Under the pieces are notes generated by a model. That model had not been told where the DNA came from, made no database searches, and saw only the letters and a list, made by a program, of their open reading frames with translations. The position numbers were made by a program, and so were the translations under genes. From NCBI RefSeq assembly GCF_036971445.1, contig NC_091469.1:158038001-158102000 (forward strand): DNA of 64,000 bases. Direction: 5' to 3'. Positions 6,755 to 64,000 of the stretch are shown here, piece by piece. The stretch comes from Narcine bancroftii (Eukaryota). How positions within the stretch are numbered: the stretch's first letter is position 1; every line of letters starts with the position of its first letter.

Positions 6755-6889
6755 CCGAGGAGTCACGTGATGGAGTAGTGGCCGGTCAGGGAACACCAGC
6801 CCTCTCCGGAAAAGTTTAAAAAAAATACACAAAACACAAAGGTACAAGAATAAAAATTAAAACAAAGGAAAAGTAAAGGTGGGAAGAAA

Positions 6890-8130
6890 ATGGCAGCGAA
6901 GAAAGAAAAGTCGAAAGCAATGGGAAGAAGAGAAGAAGAAAGAACGTCGGAAGAAGAAGGTGAAGGCCTTACCTGTCCGAGGAGGCCCGCCGCAGAGAGA
7001 GAAGCCCACTCCCTAAGGACAGTGGAAGTCCCGAGCTCGGGACTACAAAAATGGCTCACGGAGCAAAGTAAAAGTGTGCAACCACGCATGTGTGAAGAGT
7101 CGCGCATGCGCGATGCGCATGAAAAAAAAAACACTGACAGGAGGGGGGAACAGCTGAGGAGTCGATCTCCACAGCTGAGAATGACAGCTACAACACAACA
7201 ACAGGAAGAGAACATAGAAAACAACGAGAATAAGAAAGAAGAGAGTAAAAAGAAAACAAGGAAACAACAGATGACCAACCCAGAGGAAGAAGAAGAAGAA
7301 CATAGAGAAATGGAAGAAGGGAAAGGCAAGACAATGGATATATTTTTTTAAATGAATATATAGAATCAGTAAAAGAATGGCAATTACAAGAATTTAGTGA
7401 AATAAAAAGAAGAATTAAAAGTGCAGAAGAAAAAATGAATAGAATAGAGATGGTAATGTCAGATATAGGAAAAAGAGTGGACAAGGTGGAAGAATGAGAA
7501 ACAGCCATAGAAATGGAAGTAGAGGACTTAAAAGAGAAATTAGAAGAATCTAATAAAAAAGTTAAAGAGACACAAGAGCTGTTAGCTCAGAAGATAGATA
7601 TAATGGAAAATTATAATAGAAGAAATAATATAAAGATAGTGGGCCTTAAGGAAGATGAAGAAGGCAAGAATATGAGAGAATTTATAAAAGATTGGATCCC
7701 CAGGGTCCTAGGAAGACCAGAATTACAGGAAGAAATGGAAATAGAAAGGGCACATAGAACATTAGCCCCTAAACCACAACCACAACAAAAACCAAGATCC
7801 ATTTTAGTAAAATTCTTAAGATATACAACAAGAGAAAATATATTGGAGAAAGCAATAAAGAAAATAAGAGAAGACAAAAAGCCACTGGAATACAAAGGTC
7901 AAAATTTTTTTTTCTATCCAGACATAAGTTTTGAACTCCTGAAGAAGAGAAAGGAGTTTAATACAGCAAAAACGATTCTATGGAAAAAAGGATATAAATT
8001 TATGTTAAAGTACCCAGCGGTACTTAAAATAGTTATTTCAAGGCAGCAAAACAGACTATTCTCGGATCCGGAGGAAGCACGAAAATTTGCAGAACAACTA
8101 CAAAACAGGCAGAGAGATGAAGACATGTAA
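6890..8130 (+). pseudogene. L1 ORF1p (coiled coil + RRM + CTD, Transposase_22-like), disrupted
   Basis: ENYNRRNNIKIVGLKE, IERAHR, PRSILVKF, FYPDIS, LKYPAVLKI motifs; frameshift near 7345 and TGA near 7495. Confidence 0.9.
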
Positions 8131-8580
8131 CGAGAGTAAAAATGACCACGAACTATATGTATGTGTGTATATGGGTATATATATGTATATATATATATAT
8201 ATAATAAGGGAAAGAAAGGGAAGAGAGGAAGTAAGGAGGGAATTAAAAGAGTGACCTTTGTGACATATGAAAAGTGAAATCTTTTCTGGGGGAGGCGGGG
8301 TGGGGGGAAATAGCGGTCACTGCAAAATCAGTTGACGCTTGCGAGTGAATTCGCAAATCCAAATGGAGAGGGGAGTTGTGGTTGCCCGACAAGGGATAAA
8401 GGGCAACTCAGAAAGGGGAGGGGATAATGGGGTTAAAGAAATTTTAGATAGGAGAATAAGGGAAATGTTTGATGTTTTAGAAATGTTGTCTTATAAAGTG
8501 TTCAAAACAAGAAAGCAGAAATGGATAAGAAGGAAAGGTGATGATGAGGAAACGGAAAGGAAAGATAAACAAAGTATGAA

Positions 8581-11500
8581 ATGGCTACGTTGAACTATAT
8601 GACTTTAAATATTAACGGAATACATAACCAAATCAAAAGGAAGAAACTGCTAAATTTACTGAAAAAAGAAAAAATTGATATAGCATTTGTGCAAGAAACA
8701 CATTTAACTGAAATGGAGCACAAGAAATTAAAGAGAGATTGGATAGGACATGTAACAGCAGTGTCATATAATTCAAAAGCCAGAGGAGTAGCTATATTAA
8801 TCAGTAAAAATGTACCAATTAAAATAGAAGAGGAAATAATAGATCCAGCAGGGAGATATGTAATGATAAAATGTCAGATATATTCGGAGTTTTGGAATTT
8901 ACTCAATGTATATTCACCTAACGATTAAGATGAAAAATTTATGCAAGATATTTTTTTGAAGATAGCAGACACGCAAGGGAACTAATAGGAGGGGATTTCA
9001 ACCTTAATTTGGATTCAAACATGGATAAAACTGGGAAAAAAAATTAATAGAAAGAACAAAGTAACCAAATTTATAATTAAATCGATGCAAGAAATGCAAC
9101 TTTTGGATATATGGAGGAAACAACACCCAAAGGAAAAGGAATATTCGTATTATTCGGGTAGACATAAAACATACTCAAGAATAGACCTATTTTTGTTATC
9201 AGCTCGTATGCAAGATAGAGTAAGAAAAACAGAATATAAAGCTAGAATATTATCGGACCACTCACCCCTGATATTGACAATAGAGTTAGAGGACATCCCT
9301 CCAAGAATGTATAGATGGAGATTAAACTCCATGCTACTTAAAAGACAGGATTTTAGAGAATTCATTGAGAGACAAATTAAAATGTACTTTGAAATAAATA
9401 CGGAATCAGTGAAAGATAAGTTTATACTATGGGATGCAATGAAAGCGTTCATTAGAGGGCAAAAAATAAGTTATGTAACCAAGATGAAGAAGGACTACAA
9501 TCAGGAAACAGAGCAGTTGGAAAGGGAAATAGTAAATATAGAAAAAGAATTAGCAATGAAGGAAGATACAACTAAAAGAAGAGAATTGGCAGATAAAAAA
9601 ATAAAATATGAAACACTACAAACATATAAGGTGGAGAAGAACATAATGAAGACAAAACAGAAATATTATGAACTAGGTGAAAAAACGCACAAAATCCTAG
9701 CATGGCAGCTTAAGACACAACAAGCTAAGAAAATGGTATTGACATCAAGGAAAAAAGACAAACAAATTACATATAATCCAAAGGAGATTAATGAAAACTT
9801 TAGAGAATTCTATGAACAATTATACCAAACTGAAAACGAAGGGAAAGAAGACAAAATAGATGAATTTTTAACTAAAATTGAACTACCAAAATTACAAATA
9901 GAGGAACAAAATAAATTAACAGAACCATTTGAAATAGTAGAAATACAAGAGATAATAAAAAAAACTACCAAATAATAAGACACCAGGAGAGGATGGATTC
10001 CCAAAAGAATTCTATAAAACATTTAAAGATTTATTAATTCCTCCCCTCCTGGAAGTAATCAACCAGATTGATAAAACACAAAGCTTACCAGATTCATGCA
10101 AAACAGCAATAATTACAGTAATACCAAAGACAGGGAAAGATCCACTCGTACCAGTGTCATATAGACCAATATCATTACTTAACACAGATTATAAGATAAT
10201 ATCTAAACTATTAGCAAACAGATTAGCAGAGTATGTACCTAAAATAGTAAATCTAGACCAAATTGGATTTATTAAAAAAAGACGAACAACAGACAATATT
10301 TGTAAATTTATTAATTTAATTCATGCAGTAGAAGGGAATAAAGCTCCAACAGTAGCAGTTGCTTTAGACGCAGAGAAGGCCTTTGACAGAGTAGAATGGA
10401 ATTATTTATTCAAAGTATTACAAAAATTCAGTTTAACTTAAGCAGATCAACAAGGCAGTGATGCCCACTATCACCCTTATTGTTCGCGTTAGCTATGGAA
10501 CCACTAGCAGAATTGATAAGAACAGAAAATAAAATAAAAGGGATAAAAATAAAAGACAAGGAATACAAAATCAATTTATTTGCAGATGACGTTATAGTAT
10601 ACTTAACAGAAGCAGAATTATCAATAAAAGAATTACATAAGAAATTGAAGGAATATGGAGAAGTGTCGGGTTACAAGATTAACGCAAATAAAAGTGAAGC
10701 AATGCAAATGAATAATGCGGATTTCACAAAGTTTAAGAAAGAATCGCCATTTAGATGGCAAACACAAGCAATGTGATACCTAGGTATACAACTAAATAAA
10801 AACCTCGACCATCTATATAAACTCAATTACCATCCATTAATGAAAAAATTACAAGATGACTTAGAGCATTGGAAAGACTTACCACTAACACTGATAGGAA
10901 GGATAAACTGTATTAAAATGAATATTTTCCCAAGGATACAATACCTATTTCAGTCATTACCAATACACCTAACAGAGAAATTCTTCAAGGAGTTAAAGAA
11001 AATAATAAGGAAATTTTTATGGAAAGGGGGGAAACCGAGGATAGCACTAGATAAATTAACAGAATGGTATAAACAAGGAGGCTTACAACTGCCAAACTTT
11101 AAAAATTATTATAGAGCCGCACAATTAAGATACCTATCAGATTTTTATCAAACAAGGGAAAAGCCAGATTGGACTAGATTAGAACTAGATAAAATAGGGG
11201 AGAAGATACTCGAACATATATTATATAAATGGGATGAAAAATTGGTATAACGTAGGAATTCTTCAGTATTACATAATCCGCTCAATATTTGGAAGAAGAT
11301 TCATGTAGAAAGGAATAAAACAAATTACCAATTATCAAAACTAATACTGACGCAAAATCAGCTAATCCCTTTTACAATAGATAACCTTTCCTTTAGAGAA
11401 TGGGAGAAAAAAGGGATCAAAAGAATAGAAAATTGCTTTTCAGGAAATAAATTATTATCCTTTGAACAAATATAATATAACTCATGATACAGTGTTGGCA

Positions 11501-12276
11501 TACTACCAACTGAGATCCTACTTGAAGGACAAATTAGGAAGCAGTCTGAGGTTACCAGAGGGAAGTAATTTTGAATATGTGATTACAATCACAATGATAA
11601 TCAAAAGATTTATAACAAATATGTATATTAAACTACAAGAAAAGGAGAATGAGGAAACAAATGGTAAAACTAAACAAAAATGGGAACAAGATTTAAACAT
11701 AAAGATAAAGAAGGAAACATGGAAGAAGTTAGTTCTGGAACGATGAGAAATACAATAAATACGAGGTTACGTATGATACAATATAACTGGATACACAGGC
11801 TATACATTACACCTCAAAAGTTAAATAAATGGGACCCAACAGTATCTGACAGATGTTTTCGTTGTAAAAAAGAAATGGGAACAACAATTCATGCAATCTG
11901 GACGTGTGAGAAAGTAGAAAAATTTTGGGAAGATCTAAACCAAATATTAAATAAAATTACAGAAAACAATATACCAAAGAATCCAGAGATCTTCCTCCTA
12001 AGTAACATAAAAAACAAAGAATTTGGACTTGATTTGGATGGTGCACAAAAAAGATTTGTTAGGATAGCCCTACCTGTAGCAAAAAAATGTATTATGTCAG
12101 CCTGGAAATTAGAAGATAACTTGAGAATACAACAATGGTATGTAGAAATGAATAAATGTATTCCATTAGAAAAAATAACATATAATTTAAGAAATAATAT
12201 TGCAATATTTGAACAAATATGGGAGCCTTACGTGAAACACAATAGAGAAAATCTACCGGGGTCATCTATCACCTAA
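8581..12276 (+). pseudogene. L1 ORF2p (APE endonuclease, RT, C-terminal Cys/His motif), disrupted
   Basis: NINGI, VQETH, YSRIDLF, SDHSP; YRPISLLNTDYK, LDAEKAFD, LFADD; CFRC..EMGT..HAIWTC. Several stops and frameshifts plus an RT deletion near 10434. Confidence 0.93.
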
Positions 12277-12542
12277 AATAACGAAAGGAGAAGGAAATGA
12301 AAAGAATTGACTCAGTGGAATTTCTTGTTTATTTTTATTGAGTGACAACATTGTTTGACTGGTTTAATGTATCTTAGATTCTGTACTTTAAATGAATAGG
12401 AGGGGAGGTAGGGAGGGTGGGATGGGAAGAGGGAGGGGGGGAGAAAACAACACTGTATATATTTGAAAAGGAAAATGTATGTATCTTGATCAATGTGGTT
12501 TATGGTGTGAAAAATAAAAAGTTAAAAAAAAAACATAACATC

Positions 12543-41789: not shown

Positions 41790-42882
41790 CTTTGGAAAAG
41801 AGAATAGATTTATTGTGTGGAACATAAGCCGTTTTCAGGCGGCCACCAAGCCAGACTGTAAAGTCGCACAGGATACTCCTGTGTGGCTGTCTGGTGGCCA
41901 TCTGCAAACGGAAAAGCCAGCCAGGAGGGTTACTCAACGAACCCTTCTCCGAGAGGTATAACTAGCCTGCTTGCAGCATCGAGTGTGGCAGCTGAAAGTG
42001 GCCAGGCTGCCGGGGAGGGGAAGCGGGCTGAGGACCTCGTCATGACATCATCAGCCATCGGCTCTGGCCGCGATTTTTGAAAATACAACAGTTATTTAGC
42101 AATCTCGTGGTAATCAGTACAGTTCAGTTTTTTGCAGCCAAATAATCATCCATGGTCTCAAACTTGTCTAGAAAGCAGTCCAGAGTGACAGTCCAGCCTT
42201 CCAGGTTCATCTTGCAGAGAGACAAAACCTCTTAGTGTACATATTAGTTTATTAAAGCTGTCTTATACTCGCACTGCTGGTGTGGTTATTGTCAGTACAA
42301 TTTAATAAATTAATATCATAGCTACTAGGATGGAAGCTGCTTCTGCTCCAACGCGTATTCTCGACCACTTGGAGACTCTTCCTGAGGAATGGAATCTGGG
42401 GACGACCTGCACGCATCTGTATCTGAGGACAGAGACGGCGAGGGACCGCTGTACTGGAATCGTGCTGGAATGCGGGGAAGACTACTGAAGTATGATAGGG
42501 CAGGAAAGAAATGGCCAAGAGCCCTGCCTGCCCATGGGTTTGCAGGTACAGGTGCCGCCAACCCTAAACCCTGGTCCGATCAGAAAGGGGCCACTACAAG
42601 TGGAACGATCTCTACAAGTTGTGCTCCTGATCACCACGTATGTGCAGAATTCCCGACCACTCCAGAGCCAGGGAAAGCAGACACTGCGACTGTCACTCCC
42701 CCAGCAGCAGTTTCCCCAGTACCACGGAGACCTGACGCTACCGCTGGGATCCCCCTAAGCCCACTGCAAATGTCCCAAAACCAGAGACTTAGCCAACAGC
42801 CCCAGCACCCAGGTTACTCTTCCAGCAGACACAAGCCCCACAGAGGCTCTACCAACAGCTTCCAGTACCCCAGGGTCTGCCC

Positions 42883-45800
42883 TTGCTACACCTAGACCCA
42901 GAGACCACGTGGAGACTGGGAACGATCCCCGGAATGCCTCTACATTACCTAAGGGACCAGAGACTGCGGCTTAGCCATGTGCTGCAACCAGACAGGCTGG
43001 AGCTCGACCCCAGAAATCCCGGATCCGGCACGCACTTCGGCTGCTTGCGGAGATGCTTTCTGAATTACGTGGAGGGTGCTGAGGCATCGGATAAAGAGCT
43101 ATTAATGCTGCTGTTAGCCCAGCTGGGAGACCACCCTTACTCCCTTATGCAGGATGCCAGGTCCTACCAAGAGGCAATGAGCACTTTACAGAGGCATTAC
43201 AGTGAGGGGCATCGGGAACTCCACTCCCGGTACAGGCTCATGACCAGGTCTCAACAAGTAGGGGAGTCTGCCAGAGACTTTATACTCTCTCTGAAAGACC
43301 TGGCCAGAGGCTGCAACTTTAAAGCAGTATCAGCTCAGGAGTATGCGGAGGACCTTAGAAACATAGAAACATAGAAGATAGAAGCAGGAGTAGGTCATTT
43401 GACCCTTCGAGCCTGCTCCGCCATTCAAAGAGATCATGGCTGATCTTAAAGTTCAGTACCCCGTCCCCGCCTTCTCTCCGTAACCTTTAATACCCTTATA
43501 CTGAAGAAATAGATCTAATTCCCTCTTAAATAGATTTAATGAACCTGCCTCTACTGCCCTCTGTGGCAATGAATTCCATAGATTCACCACCCTCTTGGTA
43601 AAGAAATTCCTCCTCATCTCGGTCCTAAATGGTCTGCCTATTATCCTCAAACCATGGCCCCGGGTTCTGGATTTTCCCATCCTTGGAAACATCCCATCTG
43701 CATCCATTATGTCCAGTCCTGCCAGAATTTTATAGGTCTCTATGAGATCCCCTCTCAATCTTCTAAACTCCAGCGAGTACAATCCCAAATTGCGCAATCT
43801 TTCCTCCTAAGTCATTCCTGCCATTCCAGGTATCAGCCTGGTGAATCGCCTCTGCACTCCCTCCATTGCAAGAACATCCTTCCTTAGATAAGGTGACCAA
43901 AACTGCACACAATACTCCAGGGTCTCACCAAGGCCCTGTACAGCTGCAGTAAGGTATCCTTGTTCCTATACTCGAACCCTCTTGATATGAAGGCCAACCT
44001 ACCATTTGCCTTTTTAACCGCCTGCTGTACCTGCATGCTCGCCTTCAGAGACTGGTGTACAAGTACCCCTAGGTCTCTCTGCACTTCCCCATCTCTTAAT
44101 CTATTGCCATTCAAATAGTAATCTGCCCTCCGGTTTGTATCACCAAAGTGGATAACCTCACATTTATCCACATTGTAGTGCATTTGCCATCTATCTGCCC
44201 AGTGCCCCAATTTATCCAAATCTGACACTGCCCAGAGAGCATCTGACAGTCAAGTTCCAGTCAACGTGATTTGTGGCGGTGGGGACCATTCCCAGGATGG
44301 CTCCACAATAGGGACATGCCTGGAAGGGGAATGGTGGGGCTAGATGAGACAGAGACTATTGCAGAAGCTTTAGAAAGCACCAGGAAAGAATTGGAGGAGT
44401 ACTCACAGGACTTTGGGGCTGGGACTGGGACAAACATCGCCCTCTATCCCCACAAAAAGAAAAGATTGCTGCCTCACAGGAATTCACAGCAGCAGCACCT
44501 TGAGGGTCCCAAGTGCTTTTTCTGTGGACATAAAAGCATCCCAGAGCCTTCTGTCCTGCCGGAGAAAATGTCTGTTCCAACTGTGGAAAACGTGGGCATT
44601 ATGCAAAAGTCTGCAGAAGTCCCAAGGCCACGGCCAAGGCCCATTCTCATGCTAATGAGAAGCGGGAAAGCTCTTCTTTCTCCACAGACAAACAGAGGAA
44701 GAAGAATGCCATGTGCAGCCAGCCATCTTGGACAAATGCTACAGAGCAGAGGACACAGTCTTCAGGAGATGAATATGACGCCAAGTACTATCAGATGGAA
44801 GGACACGAAGGACACGCTTGCTTCCCTACACATGAATCAGGTGAATCCATACAATTTATCTGATGCCACTGTGTGCATCAAAATTAATGATGTGAGGGTA
44901 AATTCCTTAATAGATAGTGGAAGCACTGAAAGTTTTATTGACCAGGGGTTAGTCAACCGCCTTGCCCTCCCCACACGCCCGAGTGAGCACCGGATCCTGT
45001 TAGCAGCCTGCAGCCTTGTGGCTGAGGTAAAACAGTTTTGCAGGGTTACTCTAGAAATCCAGGGCATAAAATACGAAGGGTTCAAATTACTAGAACTCCC
45101 TCACCTCTGTGCCCCGGTACTATTGGGGTTAAATTTTCAGTGCCAGTTAGAAAGCATTACAATAGTGGACAACGGGCCTCACCCCCCACTACGTCTTACG
45201 AAGAAATAACACTGCAGCCTGTCTGTCCTGAACATAGAACCCCCTCCGCTGTTCACACACCTGACCCCAGAATGTACACCAATAGCCACAAAGAGCAGGA
45301 GGTATAGCCCGAGGGACAGAGCCTTCATTAGGACAGAGGTCCGCAGGCTACTACAGGAGGGCACCATAGAGCAGAGCACCAGCCCCTGGAGAGTCCAGGT
45401 GGTTGTAGTAAAGTCAGGAGAAAAACTACGCATGGTAGTGGATTACAGCCAGACAATCAACAAATTTACACAACTAGATGCCTAACCCCTGCCATGCATA
45501 ACAGACATGGTCAACAACTGAAGGAGTTCTCCACCATAGACCTGAAGGCAGCATACCACCAACTGCCCATTAGAAACAGCGATCGCATTTACACGGCATT
45601 TGAGGCAGACGACAGGCTGTATCAATTTCTGCGCCTCCCCTTCAGTGTCACCAATGGAGTGTCCCTGTTTCAGAGAGAAATGGACCGAATAGTAGATGAG
45701 TTCCAACTGAAAGCAGTGTTCCTCTACTTAGACAACGTGACAATCTGTGGCCACACTCAGGAGGATCATAACACGAATTTAAAACGCTTCTTCAAGGCAG

Positions 45801-47666
45801 CCGAGGAAAGGAACCTAACATACAACAGGGACAAATGCGTCTTTAGCACCAGGAAGTTGCCAATCCTGGGCTACATAGTGCAGAACGGGGAAACCAGCCC
45901 AGACCCAGCCCGTATGCGCCTTCTCTTTGACCTCCCAGTGCCACACACGCTGAAAGCATTAAAAAGGTGTTTAGGACTGTTCGTTTACTGCACCCAATGG
46001 GTCCCCAACTACTCCAACAGGGCCCACTTATAAAAGCCTCCGTTTTCCCACTGTGTCAAGCAGCCACCAGAGCATTCAGGGACATTAGGGACCATATTGG
46101 TAAAGCTACCATGCGGTCCATAGATCAGTCTATCCTTTTTCAAGTAGAAACGGATGCATCCGATGTGGCTCTGGCAGCCACCCTAAACCAAGACGGACGA
46201 CCGGTGGACTTTTTCTCGCGATCCCTACAGAGGTCAGAGGTAAGACACTCAGCAGTAGAGAAGGAGGCCCTAGCCATTATGGAAGCGGTAAGGCACTGGT
46301 GACATAATCTGGCGTGCAAACACTTCACCCTCGTCATGGATCAACGTGGCTTTTATGTTTGATAACCAGAACAGGGGGAGAATTAAGAATGACAAAAACC
46401 TGCGCTGGTGGATAGAATTGTCTACATTTAACTCCAACATTCTATACCGCCCTGGGAGACTCAACGAGCCCCCGGACGCACTGTCCAGAGGCACTTGTAC
46501 CATCCTTAACCCCACGTCCCAGTTGCAGAGCTTGCACAATGAGCTGGGCCACCCGGGGGTCGCTAGACTGTTTCACTTCATTAAAACCCCAAAACCTCCC
46601 ATTTTCGGTAGAGGAAGTGAGGTCAGTGAACAAGGGAAAACTGCAATTTAACGTCCAAACAAAGCCACCCTGATAAAAGCTACCAAACCTTTTGAGCGCC
46701 TTAGCCTTGATTTTAAAGGCCCACTCCCGTCCAATAATAGAAATGTCTATTTCCTCAACTTAATAGATGAATATTTCCATTTCCCCTTCGCAATCCCGTG
46801 TTCTGATGTATGAACAGTTACTGTTATAAAATGCCTCCAACCCATCTTCAGCATATTTGGGTACCCAAACTACATACACACAGACAGGGGGGCTGCGTTC
46901 ATGAGCACAGAAGTACAGCAGTACCTGCTGAGAGAGGGATTGCTACCAGCCGCACTACAAGTTACAATCCCAGGGGAATGGACAAGTTGAAAGGGAAAAT
47001 GCCACTATCTGGAAACGGTCCTCTTGACCTTAAAAGCAAAAGACCTGCCTGTGACTAGGTGGCAAGAAGTGTTGCCAGAAGCCCTACACGCTAAACGTTC
47101 TTTGTTGTGTACTGCCACTAACATGACCCCACATGACTGTATCTTTCACAAGGAAAGCCACGACGGGCACAGTTCTGCCTAAATGGATGATGACACCGGG
47201 ACCTGTTCTCCTCCAGAAGCACTGCAGACCCCACAAAGTGGACCTGCTGGTGGATCAAGTGGAGTTGAGGCACACAAACCCTCAGTACACCTTCATCACA
47301 TTCCCAGATGGAAGAGAAGACTCGGTGCCCACCAGGCATCTTGCGCCGGCCGAATGTGTGAACAAAGCGGAGGAAACACAGATGTCTATGGATCAACAAG
47401 GAGCCCAGCAGCAGTCACTAGAACAGCCGTCCATCGAGTCACCCCAGAGGACTATACCACCCACCCCGGAAATCAGGACCCTGGGCACGACCGCCCCACA
47501 AAATATCACCACCCTAGACTTGATGGCAGGACCTAATCCCATACGAGAATCCCCAGCCCACATGGCCATATGGCCAACCAGTACTTCCCACTCCCACACC
47601 TCCACCAATAAAGACCGAAAGGCAGACCGCACTCCCCACCCCTACACCACTACCGAGGAGTTCTAG
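42883..47666 (+). pseudogene. Gypsy gag-pol (disrupted)
   Basis: LQPDRLELDP..CFLNY gag start, Cys/His knuckles (CFFCG; CSNCGKRGHYAKVC), protease LIDSGS, RT IDLKAAYHQ..YLDNV, RNase H VETDAS..EKEA, integrase HPG..DFKGPLP..TTSYNPRG. Confidence 0.92.
43356..44222 (-). mobile_element. CR1 3' fragment, same young subfamily as 13233-17040
   Basis: (ACATAGAA)n tail; near-identical to 13233-14100; interrupts Gypsy gag. Confidence 0.93.
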
Positions 47667-48180
47667 AAGGCAACAGAAGCCATGAAAAATTTTGGACTTA
47701 TGAACTTACAAGCAATGGAAGGAGGATGGGGGTGGGGGGGCGGGGGCAATAACAATTTTTTAAGGGGGGGTGAATGTGGTGATATGTAATTCCACCACTA
47801 GGTCACCAGGGGTCATCGCGGTGACCTTGTATATAAAGCAGTCCAGAGCTACAGTCTAGCCTTGCAGGTTTGTCTTGCAAAGAGACAAGACCTCTTAGTG
47901 TATATATTAGTTTATTTTTAAATTAAAAAAAAATTTCACACTGAACTATATTAATCAAAATACACACAAACATTTCCCTCTTGAATATGCACAGTGTCAT
48001 TTTTTCCCCTTTTTTCCCCCCTCCTTCCCACCCCCCTCCAAACTCATTAAACATACAACATACACAATACAATAAAACCATTAAACAATGTCATCACATA
48101 ATGAAAATAAACAAGAAAATTGTATCATCTACTTTTACACACTGGGTCAGTTCATTTCGTCTTCTTCTCATCCTGTCATT

Positions 48181-51100
48181 TTAGAGGGTGGGGGTCCGCG
48201 GTAGGCCCTCTCTGTTATGTTCCATGTACGGTTCCCAAATTTGTTCGAATACTGTGACGTTATTTTTTAAATTATATGTTATTTTTTCCAATGGAATACA
48301 TTTATTCATTTCCATGTACCATTGCTGTACTCTCAGGCTCTCTTCTGATTTCCAGGTTGACATTATACATTTTTTTGCTACATCTATCATAATAATTTTT
48401 TTTTTGCACTTCATCCAGTTTGAGGCCTAGTTCTTTACTTCTTATATTACTTAGAAGAAAGATCTCTGGATTTTTTGGGATGTTGCTTTGTGTGATTTTA
48501 TTTAATACCTGGTTTAGATCTTCCCAAAACCTTTTCACTTTCTCACATGCCCAAATTGCATGTACTGTTGTTCCCGTTTCCTTCTTACAGTGAAAACATC
48601 TGTCTGATACTATTGGGTCCCATTTATTTAACTTTTGGGGCGTGGTGTAACCAATTATATTGTATCATGCGTAACCTCGTGTTTATTGTATTTCTCATAG
48701 TTCCGGAGCATAACTTTTCCCATATTTCATTTTTTATCTTTATGTTTAAATTTTTTCCCCCTTTTTTTTGGGTTTACAGCTTGTTTTCTCATTCTCCTTT
48801 TCTTGCAGTTTGATGTACATGTTCGTTATAAATCTTTTAATTATCATTGTGTCTGTAATCACATATTCAAAGCTGTTTCCTTCTGGTAACCTCAGTCTGT
48901 TTCCCAATTTGTCCTTTAAGTAGGTTTTCAGTTGGTGGTATGCAAACATTGTACCTTGAGTTATTCCATATTTGTACTTCATTTGTTCAAATGATAATAA
49001 ATTATTTCCCAAAAAACAATTTTCTATTCTTTTGATCCCTTTTCTCTCCCATTCTCTAAAGGAAAGGTTATCTATTGTGAAAGGGATTAGTTGATTTTGC
49101 GTCAATATTAATTTTGATAGTTGGCATTTTGTTTTTTTCCTTTCCACGTGAATCTTCTTCCAAATGTTGAATAAATGGTGCAGTACTGGAGAACTTCTAT
49201 ATTGCACAAGTTTTTCATCCCTCTTATAAAGTATATGTTCTGGTACCTTCTCCCCTATTTTATCTAGCTCTATCTTGGTCCAATCTGGTTTTTCTCTTGT
49301 TTGATAAAAATCTGATAGATATCTTAATTGTGCTGCTCTATAATAATTTTTAAGGTTTGGTAGCTGCAAACCACCTTGTTTGTACCATTCTGTTAATTTA
49401 TCTAGTGCTATCCTCGGTTTTCCCCTTTCCATAAGAATTTCCTTATTATTCTCTTCAGTTCATTGAAGAATTTCTCTGTTAAGGGAATTGGTAACGATTG
49501 AAATAGGTATTGTATCCTTGGGAAGATATTCATTTTAATGCAATTTACCCTTCCTATCAGTGTTAGTGGTAAATCTTTCCAATGTTCTAAGTCATCTTGT
49601 AATTTCTTTATTAATGGCTGATAATTTAATTTGTATAGATGGCCTAGATTATTATCTAGTTGAATACCTAGGCATCGGATTGCTTGTGTTTGCCATTTAA
49701 ATGGTGATTCTTTTCTAAACTCTGTGTAATCCACATTATTCATTGGCATCGTTTCACTTTTATTTGCATTGATCTTGTACTCCGATATTTCTCCATATTC
49801 CTTCAATTTCTTATGTAATTCTTTTATTGATATTTCTGGTTCTGTTAAGTATACTATAACATCATCCGCAAATAAACTGATTTTATAATCCTTCTCTTTT
49901 ATTTTATTTTCTGTTCTTATCAGTTCTGCCAATGGTTCTATTGCTAAAGCGAACAGTGAGGGAGAGAGTGGACATCCCTGTCTCGTTGACCTGCTTAATT
50001 TAAATTGGTTCGATATATATCCATTTACTGTCACCTTTACCATTGGTCCCTTATATAATGCTTTAATCCAATTAATATATTTCTCTGGTAGGTTGAACCT
50101 CTGTAATACTTTGAATAAATAATTCCATTCTACCCTGTCAAAAGCTTTCTCTGTGTCTGAAGCAACAGCCACTGTTGGTATCTTATTTCCTTGTACTGCA
50201 TGGATTAGATTATTAAATTGACAGACATTGTCCATTGTTCGTCTTTTCTTAATAAATCCAGTTTCATCTAGTATTACTATTTTTGATACACAGTCGGCCA
50301 ATCTGTTTGCTAATAATTTCACTATTATCTTATAATCTGAGTTAAGTAGAGGTATTGGTCTATATGATGCTGGTGTTAGTGGATCCTTCCCCATCTTTGG
50401 TATTACAGTAATTATTGCTGTTTTACATGAATCTGGCAAGTTTTATGTTTCTTCTATCTGGTTCATTACTTCTAGGAGAGGAGGAATTAATAAGTCTTTA
50501 AATGTTTTATAGAATTCTATTGGGAGTCCGTCGTCTCCAGGCATTTTACTATTCGGTAGCTTTTTTAATATATCCTGTATTTCCTCTCTTTCAAATGGTT
50601 TTATTAATTTGTTTTGCTCCTCTTCTTGCAATTTCGGTAGTTCAATTTCAGCTAAAAACTCTATTTTTTCTTCTTTCCCTTCGTTCTCAGTTCGATATAA
50701 TTGTTCGTAGAATTTCTTGAAGTTTTCATTAATCTCCATTGGATTATATGTAATTTGTTTGTCCTTTTTCCTTGATGCCAATACTGTTCTTTTAGCTTGT
50801 TCTGTTTAAGCTGCCAGGCTAGTATTTTGTGTTTTTTTCTCCTAGTTCATAATACTTCTGCTTTATTTTCATTATGTTCTTCTCCATCTTATACATTTGT
50901 AGTGTTTCATATTTTATTTTTTTGTCCGCCAATTCTCTTCTTTTGTTGTATCTTCCTTTATTGCTAATTCTTTTTCTGTACTTACTATTTCCCTTTCCAG
51001 CTGTTCTATTTCCTCCTTTTTCATCTTAGTTACATCACTTATTATCTGCCCTCTGATGAACGCTTTCATTGCATCCCATAGTATAAATTTGTCTTTCACT

Positions 51101-51909
51101 GATTCTGTATTTATTTCAAAGTACATTTTAATTTGGCTCCCAATAAATTCTCTAAATTCCTGTCTTTTAAGTAGCATGGAGTTAATCTCCATTTATATGT
51201 TCTTGGTGGGATGTCCTCCAGCTCTATTGCTAATAACAGGGGTGAGTGATCCGATAACAATCTAGCTTTATATTCCGTTTTCCTAACATTCCCTTGGATA
51301 TGGGCTGACAACAGGAACAGGTCAATCCTTGAGTATGTTTTATGTCTACTCGAATAATATGAGTATTCCTTCTCCTTTGGGTGTTTCCTCCTCCAAAAGT
51401 TGCATTTCCTGCATTGATTTAACCATAAATTTGGCTACTTTGTTCTTTTTGCTAGTCTTTTGACAAGTTTGAAACCAAATTAAGGTTAAAGTCCCCTCCT
51501 ATCAATATATTCCCCTGTGAATCTACAAACTTAAAAAGAAATCTTGCATAAACTTTTGATCCTCTTCATTAGGCACATATATATTGACCAAATTCCAGAA
51601 TTCTGAATATATTTGACACTTTATCATTACATACCTCCCTGCTGGATTTATTATTTCCTCCTCTATTTTGATTGGTACATTTTTATTGATTAATATAGCT
51701 ACACCTCTGGCTTTTGAGTTATATGATGCTGCCATTACGTGCCCTACCCAGTCTCTCTTTAATATGTTATGTTCCACTTCAGTTAGATGCGGTTCCTGCA
51801 CGAATGCTATATCTATTTTTTCTTTTTTCAGTAAATTTAACAGCCTCTTCCTTTTGATTTGGTTATGTATTCCATTAATATTTATAGTCTTATAGTTCAA
51901 CATGGCCAT
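48181..51909 (-). pseudogene. L1 ORF2p, copy B
   Basis: NINGI, SDHSP, YRPIPLLN, RQGCPLSP, LFADD; multiple frameshifts. Confidence 0.92.
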
Positions 51910-52392
51910 TTCATATTCTGTTTACACCTCATTTCCGCTTCCTCACCACCACCTTTCCCCTTTTCCCCATTTTCATCCCTCAGTTTTCCCTTTTTGAACA
52001 CACTGTATGACAACACTTCTAAAACATAAAATACTTCAACCACACCCACATCTAAAATTCCCTCAACCCCAAGTGTCCCCCCCCCTCTCTGAGTCGCCCC
52101 TTGTCCCTTGCCGGGCAACCACAACTCCCCTCTCCATTTGGACTGCGAACCCGTTCCCAAGTGTCAACTGATTTCGCAGTGACTGTTACACCCAAACCCC
52201 TCCAGAAAAGACTTTTATCTTCACATTACAACAAAGCTCCCCCTCTTTTCTTCTTTTACTTTTTATTTACTTTTGTCCCCTCCTCTTTTTCCCCCTCTTC
52301 TCCCTTACTTCCCTTTACTTCCCTCCTTTAGTTCTTACTTATACATTATTTTTACATCTTTATATGTAGTTTGTTATCGTTCTTCGTTCTTG

Positions 52393-53784
52393 TTACATCT
52401 CTTCATCTTTTTGTTCTGCAGGCGTTCTGCAAATCCTCGTGCTTTCTCCGGATCCGAGAACAGTCTGTTTTGTTCCCCCGGGATAACTATTTTAAGCACC
52501 GCTGGATATCTTAACATAAATTTATAGCCTTTTTTCCATAGGATCGATTTTGCTGCATTAAACTCCTTCCTCTTTATGAGTTCAAAACTTATGTCTGGGT
52601 AGAAATTTTTTTTGACCTTTGTATTCCAGTGGCTTTTTGACTTCTCTCATTTTATTCATTGCCTTCTCCAATATATTTTCTCTTGTCGTGTATCTCAGGA
52701 ATTTTACTAAAACGGATCTTGGTTTTTGTTGTGACTGTGGTTTTGGGGCTAATGTTCTCTGTGCCCTTTCTATTTCCATTCCTTCCTGCATTTCTGGCAT
52801 ACCCAGGACTTTTGGGATCCATTCTTTTATAAATTCTTTCAAATCTTTGCCTTCTTCATCTTCCTTAAGGCCCACTATCTTTATATTGTTTCACCTACTA
52901 TAATTTTCCATTATATCCGTCTTCTGAGCTAACAACTCCTGTGTTTCTTTAACTTTTTTGTCACTTTCTTCCAATTTTCTTTTTAAGTCGTTCACTTCCA
53001 TTTCTACCGCCATTACACGTTCTTCCACATTTTCTGATCCTTTCCGTAGATCTGTTATGACCAGCTCTATTCTACTCACTTTTTCTTCTGTACTTTTCAT
53101 TTTTATTTTCATTCCACTAAATTCTAGTGTCAACCATTCTTTTAATGCTTTCATTTGTTCTTGACATTTTTTTTAATCTATGTACTGTCCATTCATTTTA
53201 CCTTCTGTTCCTCTGTGCAGAGCGTGGTCTTCTTCTTCTTCTTCTTCTTCTTCTGTGTCTGCTCTTGGGTTTGTGTCTTCTACTTCTCTTCCTTGTATCT
53301 GTGTCTCTGACTTTCTTGTTGAGCTGCTTGTCTGTTTGTTGGATATTTTTTTCATGGTTTCATGATGTTGGTCCTCTTCTTCTGGTGTGGTTATCTGTTG
53401 GGCCTCCTGCTTCTGTTTTTCTTTCTCATCCCTCCCTTTCCCATTGCTTTCTTTTTCTTCCAGCTGGGAGCCCTGCTGTCGGGCATCTCTCAGCTGTTTG
53501 TGCTATGTAGTTTCACTCCACAGCTGGTCTACCCTCCTGTCGGTGTTCTCCTTGTCCTTGTTGTGTGCAGTTGTGCACCCCTGTTTGGCTCAGTGAGCCA
53601 TTTTTGCAGTCCCGCGGTCAGTAGGTTGCGATCCTGCGGGGTCTCCACTAACCTCGGGGAGCAGGCTCCTCTTTCCACGGCGGGTCCCTGCTTTTTCGTG
53701 CAGGTAAGGCCTTCTCCTTTCTCTTCCGGTGTCTTTCCTTCTTTTTTTCCCCGTTGTTTTTGGTTTTTCTTTCTTAGGTGCCAT
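52393..53784 (-). pseudogene. L1 ORF1p, copy B
   Basis: MAPKKEK start, coiled coil (52891-53154), GLKEDEEG..IERA.R..PRSVLVKF; disrupted. Confidence 0.88.
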
Positions 53785-54039
53785 TTTCTTCACACCTTTA
53801 TCTTTTAGTTGTTGTGATCTGTGTATCTGGGGCTTTGCTTTTCCTTCACTTTTTTTCTTCTTTTCTGGAGAGGGCTGGTATTTTCCTACCAGCCACTACT
53901 CCATCACGTGACTCCTCCATATTAGTTTATTAAAGCTATCTTATACTTGCACAGCTGGTGTGGTTATTGTCAGTACAGTCACCACAAAGAATAGGTTGAG
54001 GAAACTGTGGGCCTTAATACACAGAAGAACCTTGCTGAA

Positions 54040-57000
54040 GAACCGAGACCTACGGGGTGCAGGGGTGGGAGTAGTGTGATGTTCCGCCAGCCAGGTGTCT
54101 ACAGATGGGGTCACCAATGGACAAGATGGCGAGGGTACCGTATGTGTCGGGGTGATGTCGGTCACAGAACTGAAGGGAGGTGGGGTCAGTGCCCTGAGGG
54201 GAGCCAGTCCCGTTGGAGTGAGGTCCACGGGGACTGGAATCCCAGGTGAGTCCACCCCTAACAGTGAGTCCCATTGCGGAGTACTGTGAAACACAGGGTT
54301 AACGGGGGTGTAACGAGTGGTTCCAGGCTCTCCAGCATGCGCCAGATCCCAGACAGGTATAGAGTCCTTGTGGCCGTCGGGGTACCTCACAAAGGCGTAC
54401 TGAGGGTTGGCATGAATGAAGTGCACCTCTTTGACCAACAGGTCAGTCTTATGGCCCCTCAAGTGCTACCTGAGCAGGACTGGACCTGGTGTTGCCAACC
54501 ATGGAGGAATCGAGGAACCATTCGCCAACTTCCTAGGGAAGGCAAACATGCGTTCGTGAGGAGCAGTGTTCGTGGTGGTACAAAGGAGCGAGCGGATAGC
54601 ATGCTTAATCACTGTGGCCGTGGTCATATCCGGACGGGGATGGCGAAATGGAACCGGGGGTATTCATCAATAACATTCAGGAAATAAATATTCCTGTTCG
54701 GTAAGGGAAGGGGCCCTTGAAATCAATGCTCAGTCATTCGAATGGGCGAGTGGCCTTAATGAGGTGTGCCTTGTCAGGCCTATAGAATTGCGGCTTGCAT
54801 TCTGCGCAGACCCGACAGCTTCTGATCATGGACCTGACATCTTTGACAGAGTACGGGAGGTTCCGGGATTTGATAAAGTGGAACAGTGTCGTGACTTCGG
54901 GGTGGCAGGGGGAGTCGTGTGGGGCTTGGAGACGGTTGAGATGTGTGCTGGCGCACATTCCCCAGGATAGAACATCAGGTGGATCGTTGAGTTTACCTGG
55001 CCGGTACAAGATATCGTAATTATAGGTGGAGAGCTCGATTCTCCACTTGAGGATCTTGTCATTCTTGATTTTACCCTGCTGCTGCGTGTCGAACATGAAG
55101 GCGATGGCCCATTGGTCCGTCAGCAGGGTAAACTGTTTCCAGGCACGGTAGTGGTGCCAGTGGCGCACCGCCATCACAACTGCCTGCGCCTCCTTCTCAA
55201 CCGAGGAGTGCCGTGGCTCAGGGCCATGGAGGGTACGGGAAAAAAAGGCTACTGGCCTGCCTGCCTGTTATAGTGTGGCGGCCAGCGTGAAATCAGAAGC
55301 ATTGCTCTCCACCTGAAAAGGGATGGATTTGTCTACAGCATTCATCGTGGCCTTTGCGATGTCCTCTCGGATCTGCTGAAAAGCAGCCTGGGCCTCCGCC
55401 GATAATGGGATCATTGTGGACCTAATGAGGGGGTGGACCTTATCAGCAAAGTTGGGCACCCACTGTGCATAGTAGGAAAACAGCCCCAGGCACCTCTTCA
55501 GTGCTTTCAGGGTGTTCGGGTCGGGGAGCTCCATTAGGGGTCGCATGCGGTCAGGGTCTGGGGCAATGACACCATGTGCCATGATGCATCCTAGGAGGGC
55601 CAGGCAATTGGTATTAAAAACACACTTGTTTTTATTGTATGTAAGATTGAGCAGTCCGCAGAAATTTAGTTAGGTTAGCGTCGTGTTCCTGTTGATCATG
55701 GCTGCAGATGTGACGATATTGAGGTAAGGGATGGTCGCTGCCAGATTGTGCTCCTCCATCATCCTGTCCATCACCCTCTGGAACATGGAGAGGCCGTTCA
55801 TGACACCGAATGGAACCCAAAGAAAATGGAAAAGTTTTCCATCATCAATGAAACCCATATAAATAAAGTCACTGGGGCAGAGGGGAAGCTGGTGATAGGT
55901 CGACTTAAGGTCAATGGTCAAGAATACCCGATATTGCGTGACCCTGTTGACCACGTCGGCGATCCGGGGAAGAGGGTAAGCGTCCAGCTGGGTGAAACTA
56001 TTGGTGGTTTGACTGTAGACAATGACCATATGTGTTTTGCTCCCATCCCTGACCAATAGAACCTGGGTTCTCCAGGGGTTGGTACTCAGGGCAATGATCC
56101 CCCACCACCAGGAGTCATTGAACCTCAGCCCACATAAACACCATATCCTCAGCGCCTGCTCTTGGTAGCGATAGGCCGATAATCCGGGATGAGGTTCACG
56201 ACAGAGGGGATACCTGAAGGGTGGTGAATCCACAAGTTGGAGCTGGGGACTGGGGGTGGGCGGAGGGGTCCTTGAGGTGTGGGTTATTCACTGTCAGGAG
56301 CGACTGGGGGCCTCCAAAAGCCATCGTCACGCTCCTGAACTGGCTTTGAAAGTCCAAACCCAAGAGGATTGGCGCGCAGGGTTGGGGCATAACAAGTAAC
56401 GAGAAATTATCGTAACGCTCATTCCCCACCGTCAGAGATGCAACACAATAACTCCCAATGTCAGTCTGGTGGTCTTTGACAGCCAGCGATATCGAGCCAC
56501 TCATCGGCCCGACTGGGAGCGAGAGTCTGCGGGCAACATCTGGGTGAATAAAACTCTCCGTGCTGCCACTGTCAAATAGGCAGTTCGTTTTATGTCCATT
56601 CACATCGATCTGCCCATTGATGGGCGATCGGATGAGGGCTGGTCTGATTCAGGATTGGTGGGTCGTTTTCATCATCAGTGCGGAGGCCCAAAGCACAAAA
56701 TGGCAGACTCCATGTTGACCAAGCAGTGATGGCTGGCGAGGTTGGGGAAGAAGACGGAAGTGGTGTCGGAGGAGCGTGCTGCGCCTGCACAGACCATGCA
56801 GAAGGCTGGAGCTGTGGCGGGTAAGATGGTGCGCCTCTCTGCACGCACGCAGTCTGAATCGGAACCAGGGGCGGCATCCATCCATCAGCCACAAACACTA
56901 CGCTGCTTCGAGGGGAGGTCTTAGCTTGACATACCCGCAGATAGTGACCCTCTTTCTGCAGCCTGAGCAACTTGCGTTCCTCATGGGACAAAGTCGTTGT

Positions 57001-57583
57001 GGGTGCAGAAAATACACTTCGTGCATTCGGACACCACCGCTGCTTTTCCCGATGCCATCTCCCAAGATGGCAGCATTTTTGGCACACAACTGGAGAATGT
57101 GCTTTTGCCCATGATCGATACTGCGTGGCGCTGGGCTGAGTCTAGAGTCCTGATTATCTGTATGGTTCGTTTCAGTAACAACTGGTCTTCTTCGAAGAGG
57201 CACTGCTGTATGTAATTGGACCTCAATCCCAATACATAGGCATCCCAAAATGGTCTTTGATGCACTGGGCCACCGGTACAGGAGCCATTATCCCCACAGT
57301 CTTTCCCCAGAATGAGCAGGGCCTGAATAAATTCTTCGGCTGACTCATGAGGCTACTGCTTTTTGGAAGTCAGGAGATAACGTGAGTAGACGTCATTGAT
57401 CCTCAGTTTATAGAGGCCCCCGAGCTCAGCCATCGTCTCGGTGTACGTAACGCAGTCCCTGATTGCTTGGAACGCTCTCTGGCCGACTCTTGCTTGCAGA
57501 ACCTTGAGCTTCTTTTTGTCCGAGTCTATCAGATTGGCCATAGCCTCGAGGAAATTACCAAAGCAGCCTTTATAGAGGAGCAT
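54040..57583 (-). mobile_element. Gypsy copy 2, internal gag-pol only, disrupted
   Basis: gag CFGNFL..KKKLKVLQARVG, protease LFDSGS, RT LDAYPLP..IDLKSTYHQ, RH, IN CRVCAECKP; no LTRs recognised. Confidence 0.9.
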
Positions 57584-57584
57584 C

Positions 57585-58420
57585 TTTGTGAGGCCTTATG
57601 CAGACCACTCACAATTCCGCAGAATAAAAAGAGTCTGACCAGGATGAAAGTTTGGGTAAGGTCATTTCGTGTGATCCACCGAACAAACCAGAATCCATAT
57701 TTGGTGTCAGAAGTGGGATTCCAAAGTCTCTGCAGATCTTTGACAGACGGAACAAAGTGGAGTGGGTCTGTGCAGACCAGGGATTTAGCCAAGTGGAGAA
57801 TGAATAATTTTTTATCTCCTCTGTTTTCCCTGTTCTGAATGAACCGTCTCTGCATGATTCTATGGCCAGGGACTAAGAGACCGGATGGAAGTTAACAGTG
57901 GACAGCGAAAGGTCAAACTTGAATTAAGAGTTCAGGGAACTCGGTGATCTGGGGCCATGGTTTAATAGGAACTCAGATAAGGTCAGGGACCTTAATGGGT
58001 AATGGTATGGATACAGTGAGTGAACTGGGTCCACCAATACAAATGATGCGTGAGAAATGTTCGGAAGATCAGAAAGTTATACATAAAGTTTCAGGGGCTT
58101 TGAATAAGAAATTGGGTAAAGTTGGGTGGCCTTCAGGAGGTACATGGGATGATGAATTAATGAAAGAGGCACAACAGTTGATTTGGAACCGTATATTAAT
58201 GAGAAATCTAGGAATACAATAGGGAAATGGCTCCGACTAGCTCAAGAAAGAAAAGAGAGAGATAAATTTGCTAGTTGGCAGACTAACGTCGTAAAATTGG
58301 AGATCCCATTGACAGAAGGGGGGATGTTAAAACCCGTGGAAGTTCTCCAGAAAGAATGTGAACACAGAAAAAAAAGGAGGTTCAGAGAATTGATGAGGAA
58401 AACTGCACAGTGGGGTGAGT
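57585..58420 (+). mobile_element. ERV-like 5' end: partial LTR, tRNA-Leu PBS, gag MA remnant
   Basis: AATAAA at ~57622, PBS TGGTGTCAGAAGTGGGATTC (57702-57721), MGNG start at 57995 with GWPSGGTW. Confidence 0.7.
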
Positions 58421-62010: not shown

Positions 62011-62463
62011 TGTAGTGATATGATTATGTGCACTGGCTGGCCTGCCCTCCGGGTGTCTTCCTGTCCTTGACAGGTCCCTGGTCCTGCCTATGTGACCCCA
62101 GGCCATAAAGGTCGAGTCCCCTCTCCTTCCCGCTCATTTTCCAAGCCTAGACCTGGACCAGCAGCCTCTAGTACGCGGATGGAGTACAATCGTTCCCCTC
62201 AGTCTTTATCCGTGTTATTATTGGGGCTACTGATGGCACCCAACAATTTGTTGTACTAGATTTTGGAGGTCTCCAGTAATGGAGAAATTGCTGCGCCCGG
62301 AACGGCTGGAAGTTGACCCCCAAGTCCTAGGTGCCTCGATGATCTTCGAGCAGTGGATGAACTGCTTCAACAACTTCCTCGACGCTGCTGCTGAGGTGGT
62401 CGACTCTAACAAGAAGAAACTAAAGATCCTTCAGACATGAGTCAGCCAGAGGGCCTTCCTGAC
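62011..62463 (+). mobile_element. Gypsy copy 3: 5' LTR (62011-62245) and start of gag
   Basis: TGTAGTGATATG..CAACA; ATG at 62279 MEKLLRPERLEVDP..FEQWMNCFNNFL; interrupted by copy 4. Confidence 0.85.
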
Positions 62464-64000
62464 TGTAGAGCTCGTCGAAAGAACCAAAGACTTGTTGATC
62501 CAAACCAAGGCTTTTATTAGCAAAAGACAGGAGCTCTTCACAGGTGGCCGGCCAGTCCGGAATGATCCGACCTGGCTAGGGACACAACCCTTGAAGGCCC
62601 AGACAATAGGTGTGGCTTAGCTCTCAGCCAATCGCTGTAAGCACAGTCTAGATACAGTAACTGTATACACTATGTACATTGGTGATAGAGCTGTACTATC
62701 ACATTCACCCCTTCTTGGAGAATTGACCCTGGAAAAAAAAACAAAAACGAGGGAGAGAATGAAAGGAAAGGGGTAGGTCAAGGACTGTAGTGGTCAGGGG
62801 GTCTGACCAACCGGTGTGACCGCCGTGGTGCCGGGATTGGGGTCGCTGGAGTGGTGTCGCCAGCGGGCTCGTTGGGTGCGATTGCTCCATCACTCAATTC
62901 CCCAGTCGTGTTGTCGGCAGGGTGGCCCGGGTCGTTGGGGTGTTGTTGGTCCTTCTGTTGCAGCACGGGGCCTGGGGAATAAAGAGTTGGGGAAGGTTGG
63001 GTTGGGGGGTTTGCTGGGTCTACCACGTCCTGAGCTAGGTCCCGCACCGAAACAGTGTCCTCCCGCCCGTCTGGGAACTCAGCGTAGGCCTAATGTGGGT
63101 TTGCGTGGAGTAGAGTCACTCGGTCGACCAAGGGGTCGTTCTTTGAGTGCCGGACGTGGCGTCGCAAAAGGACGGAGCCAGGGACGGTGAGCCAGGCCGG
63201 TACAGTGGTTCCTGATTTGGATTTCCTTGGGAAAAGGAACATCCTTTCGTGGGGGGTGGCATTTGTTGCAGTACATAGGAGGGAGCGGATAGAGTGTAAG
63301 GCACTAGTGAGAACCTCCTGCCAGTGAGAGGTGGGGAGACCTTTAGACCGGAGAGCCAGTGTAACCGCTCTCCATATGGTGGCATTCTCCCTCTCGACCT
63401 GGCCAAAACCGCGTGGGTTATAGCTCGTGGTCCTGCTTGAAGCAATACCACACTCCAGAAGGTACTGTCGCAGATCTGCGCTCATGAATGAGGACCCCCT
63501 ATCACTGTGGATGGAATTGGGGTACCCGAAGATGGTGAAAATACTGTGAAGGGCCTGTATCACTGAGGTGGCAGTGGTGTCTGGGCAGGCCACAGCGAAT
63601 GGGAAGCGGGAGTACTCGTCGATGGCTGTAAGGATGTAGGTATTACGGTTGGTCGACGGTAGGGGCCCCTTAAAGTCTACGCTAAGACGCTCGAAGGGGC
63701 GGGTGGCTTTGATAACGGGGAGTTATCCGGACAGAAGAAGTGGGGCTTGCATTCAGCACACACTGAACAGGCTCGGGACATGGAGCGGATCTCCTCGACT
63801 GTGTAGGGTAGGTTGCGCGCCTTGACAAAGTGAGCAAACCTAGTGATCCCTGGATGACAGAGCGCCTCATGGAGTTTCCGTAGTCTGTCCATCTGTATGC
63901 TGGCGCACGTCCCCCTGGAGAGCGCGTCAGGCGGGTCGTTGAGCTTACCAGGCCGGTACAGGATGTCATAGTTAAAGGTGGAGAGTTCGATTCTCCATCT
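62464..64000 (-). mobile_element. Gypsy copy 4: integrase, PPT and 3' LTR (62464-62703); runs off the window
   Basis: LHEALCHPG..CSVCAECKP, DFKGP, IHSDRGSSF, TTSYNPRG.GQVERENAT; PPT AAGAAGGGGTGAA; TG..CA LTR. Confidence 0.93.

Follow-up and report, generated by a model that had tools for sequence, protein, structure and literature searches.

An animal Gypsy lineage that likely primes reverse transcription with its own RNA

How does a retrotransposon begin reverse transcription when no tRNA primer site follows its long terminal repeat (LTR)? The question is raised by an element in a 64,000-nucleotide stretch of the Narcine bancroftii genome (NCBI RefSeq assembly GCF_036971445.1, contig NC_091469.1, positions 158,038,001 to 158,102,000 of the forward strand), which we call the window. 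Self-priming, in which an element uses its own RNA, has been shown experimentally for the yeast element Tf1, is regarded as a mark of the Tf1/sushi chromoviruses, and has been predicted in plants. Here we ask whether a Gypsy lineage of animals may do something similar.

An element whose leader complements its own LTR

The element at 42163-53977 is a broken Ty3/Gypsy (Metaviridae) retrotransposon, recognised by its LTRs, its polypurine tract (PPT) and its matches to zinc knuckle, protease, reverse transcriptase (RT) and RNase H (Table 1); its lineage has the LTRs, PPT, target-site duplication and protease-RT-RNase H-integrase order of the Metaviridae. Its 5′ LTR ends at 42299 with GTCAGTACA, and the identical end recurs in the 3′ LTR (53969-53977). 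A first, sequence-only reading of the window had pointed out that no TGG primer site follows this end and that the leader at 42301-42316 is instead the reverse complement of 42241-42256, with one G-U pair, in a stem that covers ATTAAA. Both observations hold: the two arms differ at that one position.

Table 1. Features of families A, B and D in the window (positions are those of the window)
Feature	Coordinates	Strand	Remarks
Family A 5′ LTR, 5′-truncated	42163..42299	+	LTR positions 52-188 of 188; TATA decayed in window copy
Family A predicted transcription start	42197..42199	+	LTR 86-88; 30-32 nt after the TATATAAAG of other copies; inverted copies in fossils end at LTR 87-88
Family A LTR arm	42241..42256	+	3′ end ATTAAA; putative 3′ end of self-primer
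Family A 44-nt loop	42257..42300	+	Remaining R, U5 and 1-nt spacer A (42300); predicted hairpin directly after arm
Family A predicted primer-binding site	42301..42316	+	Reverse complement of arm; one G-U in window copy
Family A broken gag-pol	42330..47762	+	Zinc knuckle, protease, RT, RNase H, then integrase-like sequence; frameshifted
Family A polypurine tract	47763..47774	+	
Family A 3′ LTR, part 1	47775..47916	+	TATATAAAG at 47830-47838
Family A 3′ LTR, part 2	53919..53977	+	Beyond insertion of about 6 kb
Family B 5′ LTR	62011..62245	+	CATAAA in 62103-62111; Inr-like TCATT, A at 62136; arm remnant 62167-62174; AATAAA lost
Family B predicted primer-binding site	62247..62260	+	14 nt in family; one A>G in window copy; gag ATG 62279
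Family D 3′ LTR, within family B gag	62464..62703	-	Arm 62512-62525

Other copies of this family (family A) pair better than the copy in the window. Among the best 30 of 1509 candidates, all 16 pairs form in 21, and pair 10 is G-C in 25, G-T in three and mismatched in two, so that the G-U of the window is a minority variant. The sequence-only reading had named absence of the complementarity from subfamily consensuses as one of two results that would count against it, and the copies show the opposite. The fold of 42190-42345 has a z score of -3.15, with 1 of 200 shuffles equally stable, and a TATA motif lies 74 nt upstream of the arm in 25 of the 30 copies. Rfam gave no match above gathering score in 42100-42400.

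The copy in the window has suffered further insertions: a LINE piece interrupts gag-pol at about 43356-44230, and a LINE-like insertion of about 6 kb (47917-53918), which matches 6757-12512 in reverse, splits the 3′ LTR, its 13-bp duplication (47904-47916 = 53919-53931) falling exactly on the AT-rich arm. Family A Gag (42330-42975) has about 215 additional N-terminal residues, rich in Pro, Thr and Ala, ahead of the conserved start known in family B. Two neighbours should also be mentioned: a further degraded element, apparently of the same lineage, on the minus strand at 53978-57650 (its 5′ LTR was not found there), and the TGG-type primer site of a different, tRNA-primed element on the plus strand at 57702-57719.

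Pairing and covariation across families

The sequence-only reading had taken a second pairing, of 62167-62174 with 62253-62260, for another copy of the same family. The pairing is real, but it belongs to a separate family, B, whose window copy is a decayed remnant that has lost AATAAA; elsewhere family B has a 14-bp stem ending at AATAAA, with CATAAA 62-63 nt and the Inr 30-32 nt upstream of the arm. A third family, D, has only its 3′ LTR in the window and its 5′ LTR just beyond the window edge (locus L384), and its leader was predicted from the arm of the 3′ LTR. The prediction was confirmed: after two of 30 loci were dropped, the leader was present in nine of 28, with a stem of 14 bp in five and of 8-13 bp in four. 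At one family D locus (L391), 13 nt of the primer site follow the LTR and spacer before unrelated DNA begins, and no PPT lies upstream.

The same arrangement recurs well outside this genome. Named RT relatives come from sharks, rays, a coral and a sea anemone. Alignment of Gag led to 80 metagenome loci and alignment of the polyprotein to 11 genome-contig loci; 12 of these 91 were dropped (no Gag start, or less than 110 nt upstream), and the remaining 79 together with families A and B fall into 35 clusters. Taking the best member of each cluster, a perfect stem of 9-18 bp is found in 27 of the 35 (p <= 0.033, 60 shuffles; the mean in shuffled sequence is 5.5-6.7 bp), reaching at least 10 bp in 23 of those 27; counted by locus, 61 of the 79 foreign loci have a stem of at least 9 bp, many of these loci being near-duplicates. 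The letters differ from family to family and the geometry is common: the LTR ends in CA, a single spacer base follows, then the stem, and the arm ends in ...AAA. Stem length averages 13.6 bp within families versus 4.8 bp over 702 cross-family pairings. Elements that have both LTRs and a 5-bp duplication (L113, L119, L121, L123, L124) gave the position of the LTR end by an independent route.

Details of the 27 stem clusters are similarly consistent. At the junction of LTR and leader, CAA meets TTT in 22; RCC stands directly 3′ of the arm in 19, and in predicted folds a hairpin usually begins there. For the helix of arm and site the predicted pair probability is 0.81-0.99. In 17 clusters the last bases of the arm are AATAAA or ATTAAA, and in one the arm extends a base past the hexamer; the hexamer lies in the loop in three, and none is nearby in six. 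The arm starts with a pyrimidine-purine step in just four. TGG stands at the primer-site position in none of the 27. The stem is absent from eight of the 35 clusters; four of these still begin like a leader, their arm being damaged or missing.

Within the Narcine genome, a family with a TGG primer site, which from its sequence pattern we take to be Mag-like, served as a control: its stem is only 4 bp (5 copies), and other Gypsy copies have 4-9 bp. The lineage resembles what we assume to be Mag-lineage Gypsy in its short LTRs, 5-bp duplications and double zinc knuckle, and differs from the Mag-like family in lacking the TGG site, RT/RNase H identity between the two being about 25%. Four other Gypsy loci of the genome (L372, L374, L377 and L379), presumably of Gmr1-like order, have leaders that start with TAATTTGGGG, with no immediate TGG and no LTR stem.

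The proteins of the lineage have marks of their own. The RT catalytic motif is YXDN, not YXDD, in 96 of 120 lineage proteins (P0004-P0123), the window copy (45518-46030) included, and two CCHC knuckles are present in 35 of 40; no paper pairing YXDN with retrotransposons was found in the literature searched. Motif searches of papers and of one supplement set did not yield a name for the clade, for which MolGy1/2, Cigr-1 and Tor2 are candidates (PMC6238403). No relative turned up in the viral contigs scanned. Eleven contigs from bacterial metagenome-assembled genomes (L191-L201) bear these Gypsy elements, probably as host contamination.

Covariation of the arms was one of the checks that the sequence-only reading had proposed. 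Both arms do change together in family B, for which 135 copies were compared (25 of 160 loci being dropped as duplicates or for missing anchors). Pairs 1-14 are Watson-Crick in 85-98% of copies and G-U in 0-3%, and pairs 15-16 fall to 3-5%; mutual information is 0.54-0.70 at pairs 7, 8, 9 and 11, and at least 12 mirrored haplotypes of arm and site occur. For every variable arm site the best correlate is its own partner (r2 0.76-0.96) when set against 78 other informative sites, and relatedness among copies therefore does not explain the covariation. The arm is not slowed in its evolution (four of 8 variable columns, versus 11 of 61 in the loop). Rare mirrored variants are present in both LTRs and in the site in three of four copies tested, and in a young foreign family, 98-99% identical, one of 10 copies (L138) has a transversion in both LTR arms together with the mirrored change in its leader. 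The primer site thus follows the LTR and not a tRNA, and the mirrored pattern is what would be expected of a site rewritten from an arm-derived template. A tree pattern in which the arm changes first and the site follows was considered and dropped: the 3′ arm matched the site in six of nine testable discordant copies.

Fold-back inserts and the identity of the primer

In Tf1 the cDNA retains a copy of the primer, as described in the available text of PMC11042837. A cDNA that ends in such a copy can fold back on its own arm, and junctions of this form (LTR end, spacer, site, then inverted LTR; matched exactly for A, with two mismatches allowed for B) are present in the genome: 146 for family A, 121 for D and 9 for B (one false), about 275 in total, with none in a reversed-pattern control. 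The false case (L490) proved to be a normal 3′ LTR, inverted and with a short stretch deleted, and was removed. We examined 70 of these fossils for A, 30 for D and all nine for B. The inverted copy reaches the first bases of the LTR in 57 of the 70 A and 24 of the 30 D fossils, which demonstrates fold-back of DNA, not the origin of the primer. Complete palindromes have two U3 ends and a 5-bp target duplication; among A palindromes the duplication is perfect in 15 of 27 and matches at 4 of 5 bases in another eight (23 of 27), and among D palindromes all 5 bases match in five of six. The two halves share alleles missing from 29 ordinary copies in four of nine palindromes, and the flanks are not inverted; these are therefore separate integrase insertions and not read artefacts. 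An identical opposite-strand joint (1557/1601) was found in two independent public runs of the four contig-only runs examined.

A smaller set of junctions bears on where the primer might begin. Ten jump into the element's own sense strand, and their endpoints can be compared with transcription starts that were predicted from TATA/Inr spacing, for A and B before the endpoints were read and for D, at LTR position 141, within the same analysis. Nine end at or 3′ of the predicted start, six of them within 2 nt (rough binomial 3e-8, microhomology and shared origin ignored): in family A, L461 at LTR position 87 and L449 at about 94; in B, L486 and L491 at +1, L484 at +2 and L489 at about +22; in D, L513 at +1, L514 at +3 and L516 at +8. 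The tenth, L500 of family D, ends at the LTR start. Microhomology makes several jump points uncertain by as much as 6 nt, and a single event may account for two B fossils that have a variant in common. Three further A fossils end at 87-88 and then pass into unrelated DNA; the simplest reading of a template that stops at this point is that it is the 5′ terminus of the RNA. At the opposite end of the putative primer, seven of the 30 D fossils have a U5 part starting at the boundary of the arm, which fits either an RNA cut or a nick in a DNA hairpin. In one duplicated D event (L503/L504), integrase, PPT, U3 and arm are followed by the complement of U5, which terminates at the boundary of the arm. 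A contrary case is also L495, in which the end lies 3 nt beyond the predicted start and antisense sequence follows.

Some inserts have other structures. Tandem arrays with 120- and 170-bp units of LTR pieces in alternating orientation (L420-L426, L438-L440) look as if RT had rolled round hairpin or dumbbell DNA. In a single D fossil (L517) the left LTR is without the stretch from predicted start to arm end (about 142-190), the same stretch as the presumed primer.

The sequence-only reading had offered self-priming from the R region as one possible role of the stem, and this part of it has gained support from the lineage-wide covariation, the out-of-sample prediction for family D, the mirrored rare variants and the integrated fold-back products. 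What is established at the level of sequence is that arm and site pair and covary, where they lie, and that products of copying from the primer site onto an arm-containing template were integrated. We regard it as very probable that the primer is an RNA of the element that contains the arm; that this RNA is the 5′ fragment of the transcript is probable, with somewhat more room for doubt.

The main competing account also invokes self-priming and differs in the molecule: the primer would be the arm in the 3′ LTR, at the distal end of the RNA, or a second RNA such as a 5′ poly(A)-stopped transcript trimmed to the duplex. The extension of L503/L504 into the PPT and integrase region is what a 3′-end primer would predict, and in the recombinant L253 arm and site are linked with U5, not with U3. 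However, the linkage in L072 is the opposite. A painting of recombinants for the place of the first jump gave a mixed picture: L072 and L234 are consistent with a crossover immediately 3′ of the arm, and L253 is not. A 3′-end primer also has U3 behind it, yet nine of the ten sense-jump fossils do not pass the predicted start, no endpoint falls inside U3, and none of 30 screened A fossils runs on into the 3′ internal region. The endpoints thus disfavour a far-end primer; a second RNA is compatible with them, since its 5′ fragment would fit every start-site endpoint equally well. Taken together, we consider this account unlikely.

Alternatively, the stem might serve mainly to hide the poly(A) signal of the 5′ LTR (it forms only where the leader follows), with priming achieved by other means. 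This was the second role suggested by the sequence-only reading, and it agrees with the 18 of 27 arms that contain AATAAA or ATTAAA at their end and with the high predicted pair probability of the helix. Nine of the 27 arms are without a canonical hexamer, though, three having it in the loop and six having none nearby, so suppression of polyadenylation is not the general reason for the stem. Masking moreover needs no fixed site one base past the LTR, no scarcity of G-U pairs, no unslowed evolution and no DNA ends at the site, and no other primer site was found. We therefore see masking as a very improbable main function; it may be a side benefit of a self-priming stem where the hexamer lies in the arm. 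Priming by a host tRNA or tRNA fragment, with the complementarity incidental, is extremely improbable, and the tRNA match that the sequence-only reading had named as a contrary result did not appear: a screen of the leader against 13 isoacceptors (27 genes; no Leu tRNA and no positive control among them) gave longest matches of 6-7 nt and 3′-anchored matches of 1-2 nt, and a tRNA primer would keep the site constant, as in the TGG family, whereas the site here is not the same from family to family and tracks the LTR among the copies of one family.

A proposed priming cycle and its relation to Tf1

We propose that reverse transcription in the lineage is likely self-primed, in a Tf1-like manner, by a 5′ primer of 44-59 nt that comes from the element's RNA and ends at the hexamer. 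Transcription would start 30-45 nt upstream of the arm, as the TATA and Inr positions suggest, and the arm would then pair with the site, with the adjoining hairpin directly 3′ of the arm. Between ...AAA and RCC the RNA would be cut, with RNase H of the element as the probable nuclease, as in Tf1, freeing a 44-59-nt 5′ primer that stays paired by its last 14-16 nt only. Whether such a cut is made in cis by RNase H we would put at about even; a nascent DNA end switching onto the uncut 5′ end of the RNA could take its place. From the freed primer, RT would copy the spacer, U5 and the short R between hexamer and poly(A) site, the last forming the overlap for the first jump. The arm may end at the hexamer or upstream of it because a cut there would leave the hexamer-to-poly(A) overlap for that jump. 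Plus strong-stop DNA would then copy the primer back, and the site would therefore be rewritten from the LTR and mirror its mutations. Finally, over-long copies would fold back or mis-jump and integrate as palindromes or chimeras.

The feature is real and lineage-wide, and it is best read as a variant of Tf1-type self-priming with a different predicted primer geometry. A chromodomain at the integrase C terminus is usual in chromoviruses; none was detected in the 24 full-length polyproteins of the lineage (E <= 0.01). It is on this absence and on the predicted primer geometry, not on RT placement, that the lineage is not filed with Tf1/sushi. Tf1/Tf2 of Schizosaccharomyces pombe, Tj1, Tosmo1-3 and other Tf1/sushi elements, as presented in the accessible parts of the sources, use no tRNA and have a site past the 5′ LTR that complements an LTR segment, with neighbouring duplexes (PMC7175516, 10.1101/2022.12.06.519325, PMC4600332, PMC11042837, PMC5341516). 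The lineage is like them in having no tRNA site, a post-LTR site complementary to the LTR and, as the fossils suggest, a primer copy at the cDNA end. The primers themselves differ. In Tf1, by the account in the available text of PMC7175516, the primer is bases 1-11, fully paired to the site, with RNase H cleavage falling between 11 and 12; unlike this 11-base 5′-end primer, the arm of the lineage lies 30-45 nt inside the predicted transcript and mostly ends at a poly(A) hexamer. Around the site, where Tf1 has the three duplexes of its "pretzel", the picture is mixed: a hairpin follows the arm in most predicted folds and an outer duplex appears in the predicted fold of family A; pairs 17-19 of family B do not covary (135 copies).

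Elements without TGG are known elsewhere. Skipper of Dictyostelium, the fungal GalEa elements and bivalve TRIMs are LTR elements whose priming is left unexplained in the portions of the sources at hand (PMC5006619, PMC6934838); according to these, Skipper has no LTR complement, and the hairpins of GalEa and TRIM lie within the internal region, unlike those of the lineage. In plants, self-priming of Tcn1 (gypsy) and of TAR, Houba and Osr-1 (copia) was predicted from LTR complementarity of at least 10 bp at 0-5 bp past the LTR, and the available text of that study mentions neither poly(A)-signal geometry nor fold-back fossils for the Tcn1 and TAR lineages (PMC6317226). These differ from the present lineage in being plant elements, Tcn1 a chromovirus relative of Tf1/sushi and TAR a copia element. 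Some Repbase Gypsy entries are said to mention self-priming palindromes. The literature searched, seen in part and with subscription journals, Butler et al. 2001 and Repbase outside its scope, gave no description of the lineage's priming or of such palindromes, and the earlier suggestion that this form of priming may be undescribed holds within those bounds only.

A wider reading is tentative, its chances falling just short of even: a widespread animal Gypsy clade in which self-priming evolved independently of Tf1, with a long capped 5′ fragment cut exactly behind the poly(A) hexamer, a single helix serving as primer, R overlap and poly(A) cover, a site rewritten in each cycle, and inserts that record both ends of the primer. 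Self-priming in a lineage that lacks a chromodomain and whose named relatives come from sharks, rays, a coral and a sea anemone would mean a separate origin with another geometry, and defences in which tRNA fragments act against primer sites could not act on these elements. Annotation pipelines that require a tRNA site will mis-score such elements. Having a U3 at each end, the fold-back inserts form an unusual class among LTR products, and they fix the predicted ends of the primer; if the interpretation is true, palindromic and start-site-terminated inserts would allow retrotransposon priming to be mapped from genome sequence alone.
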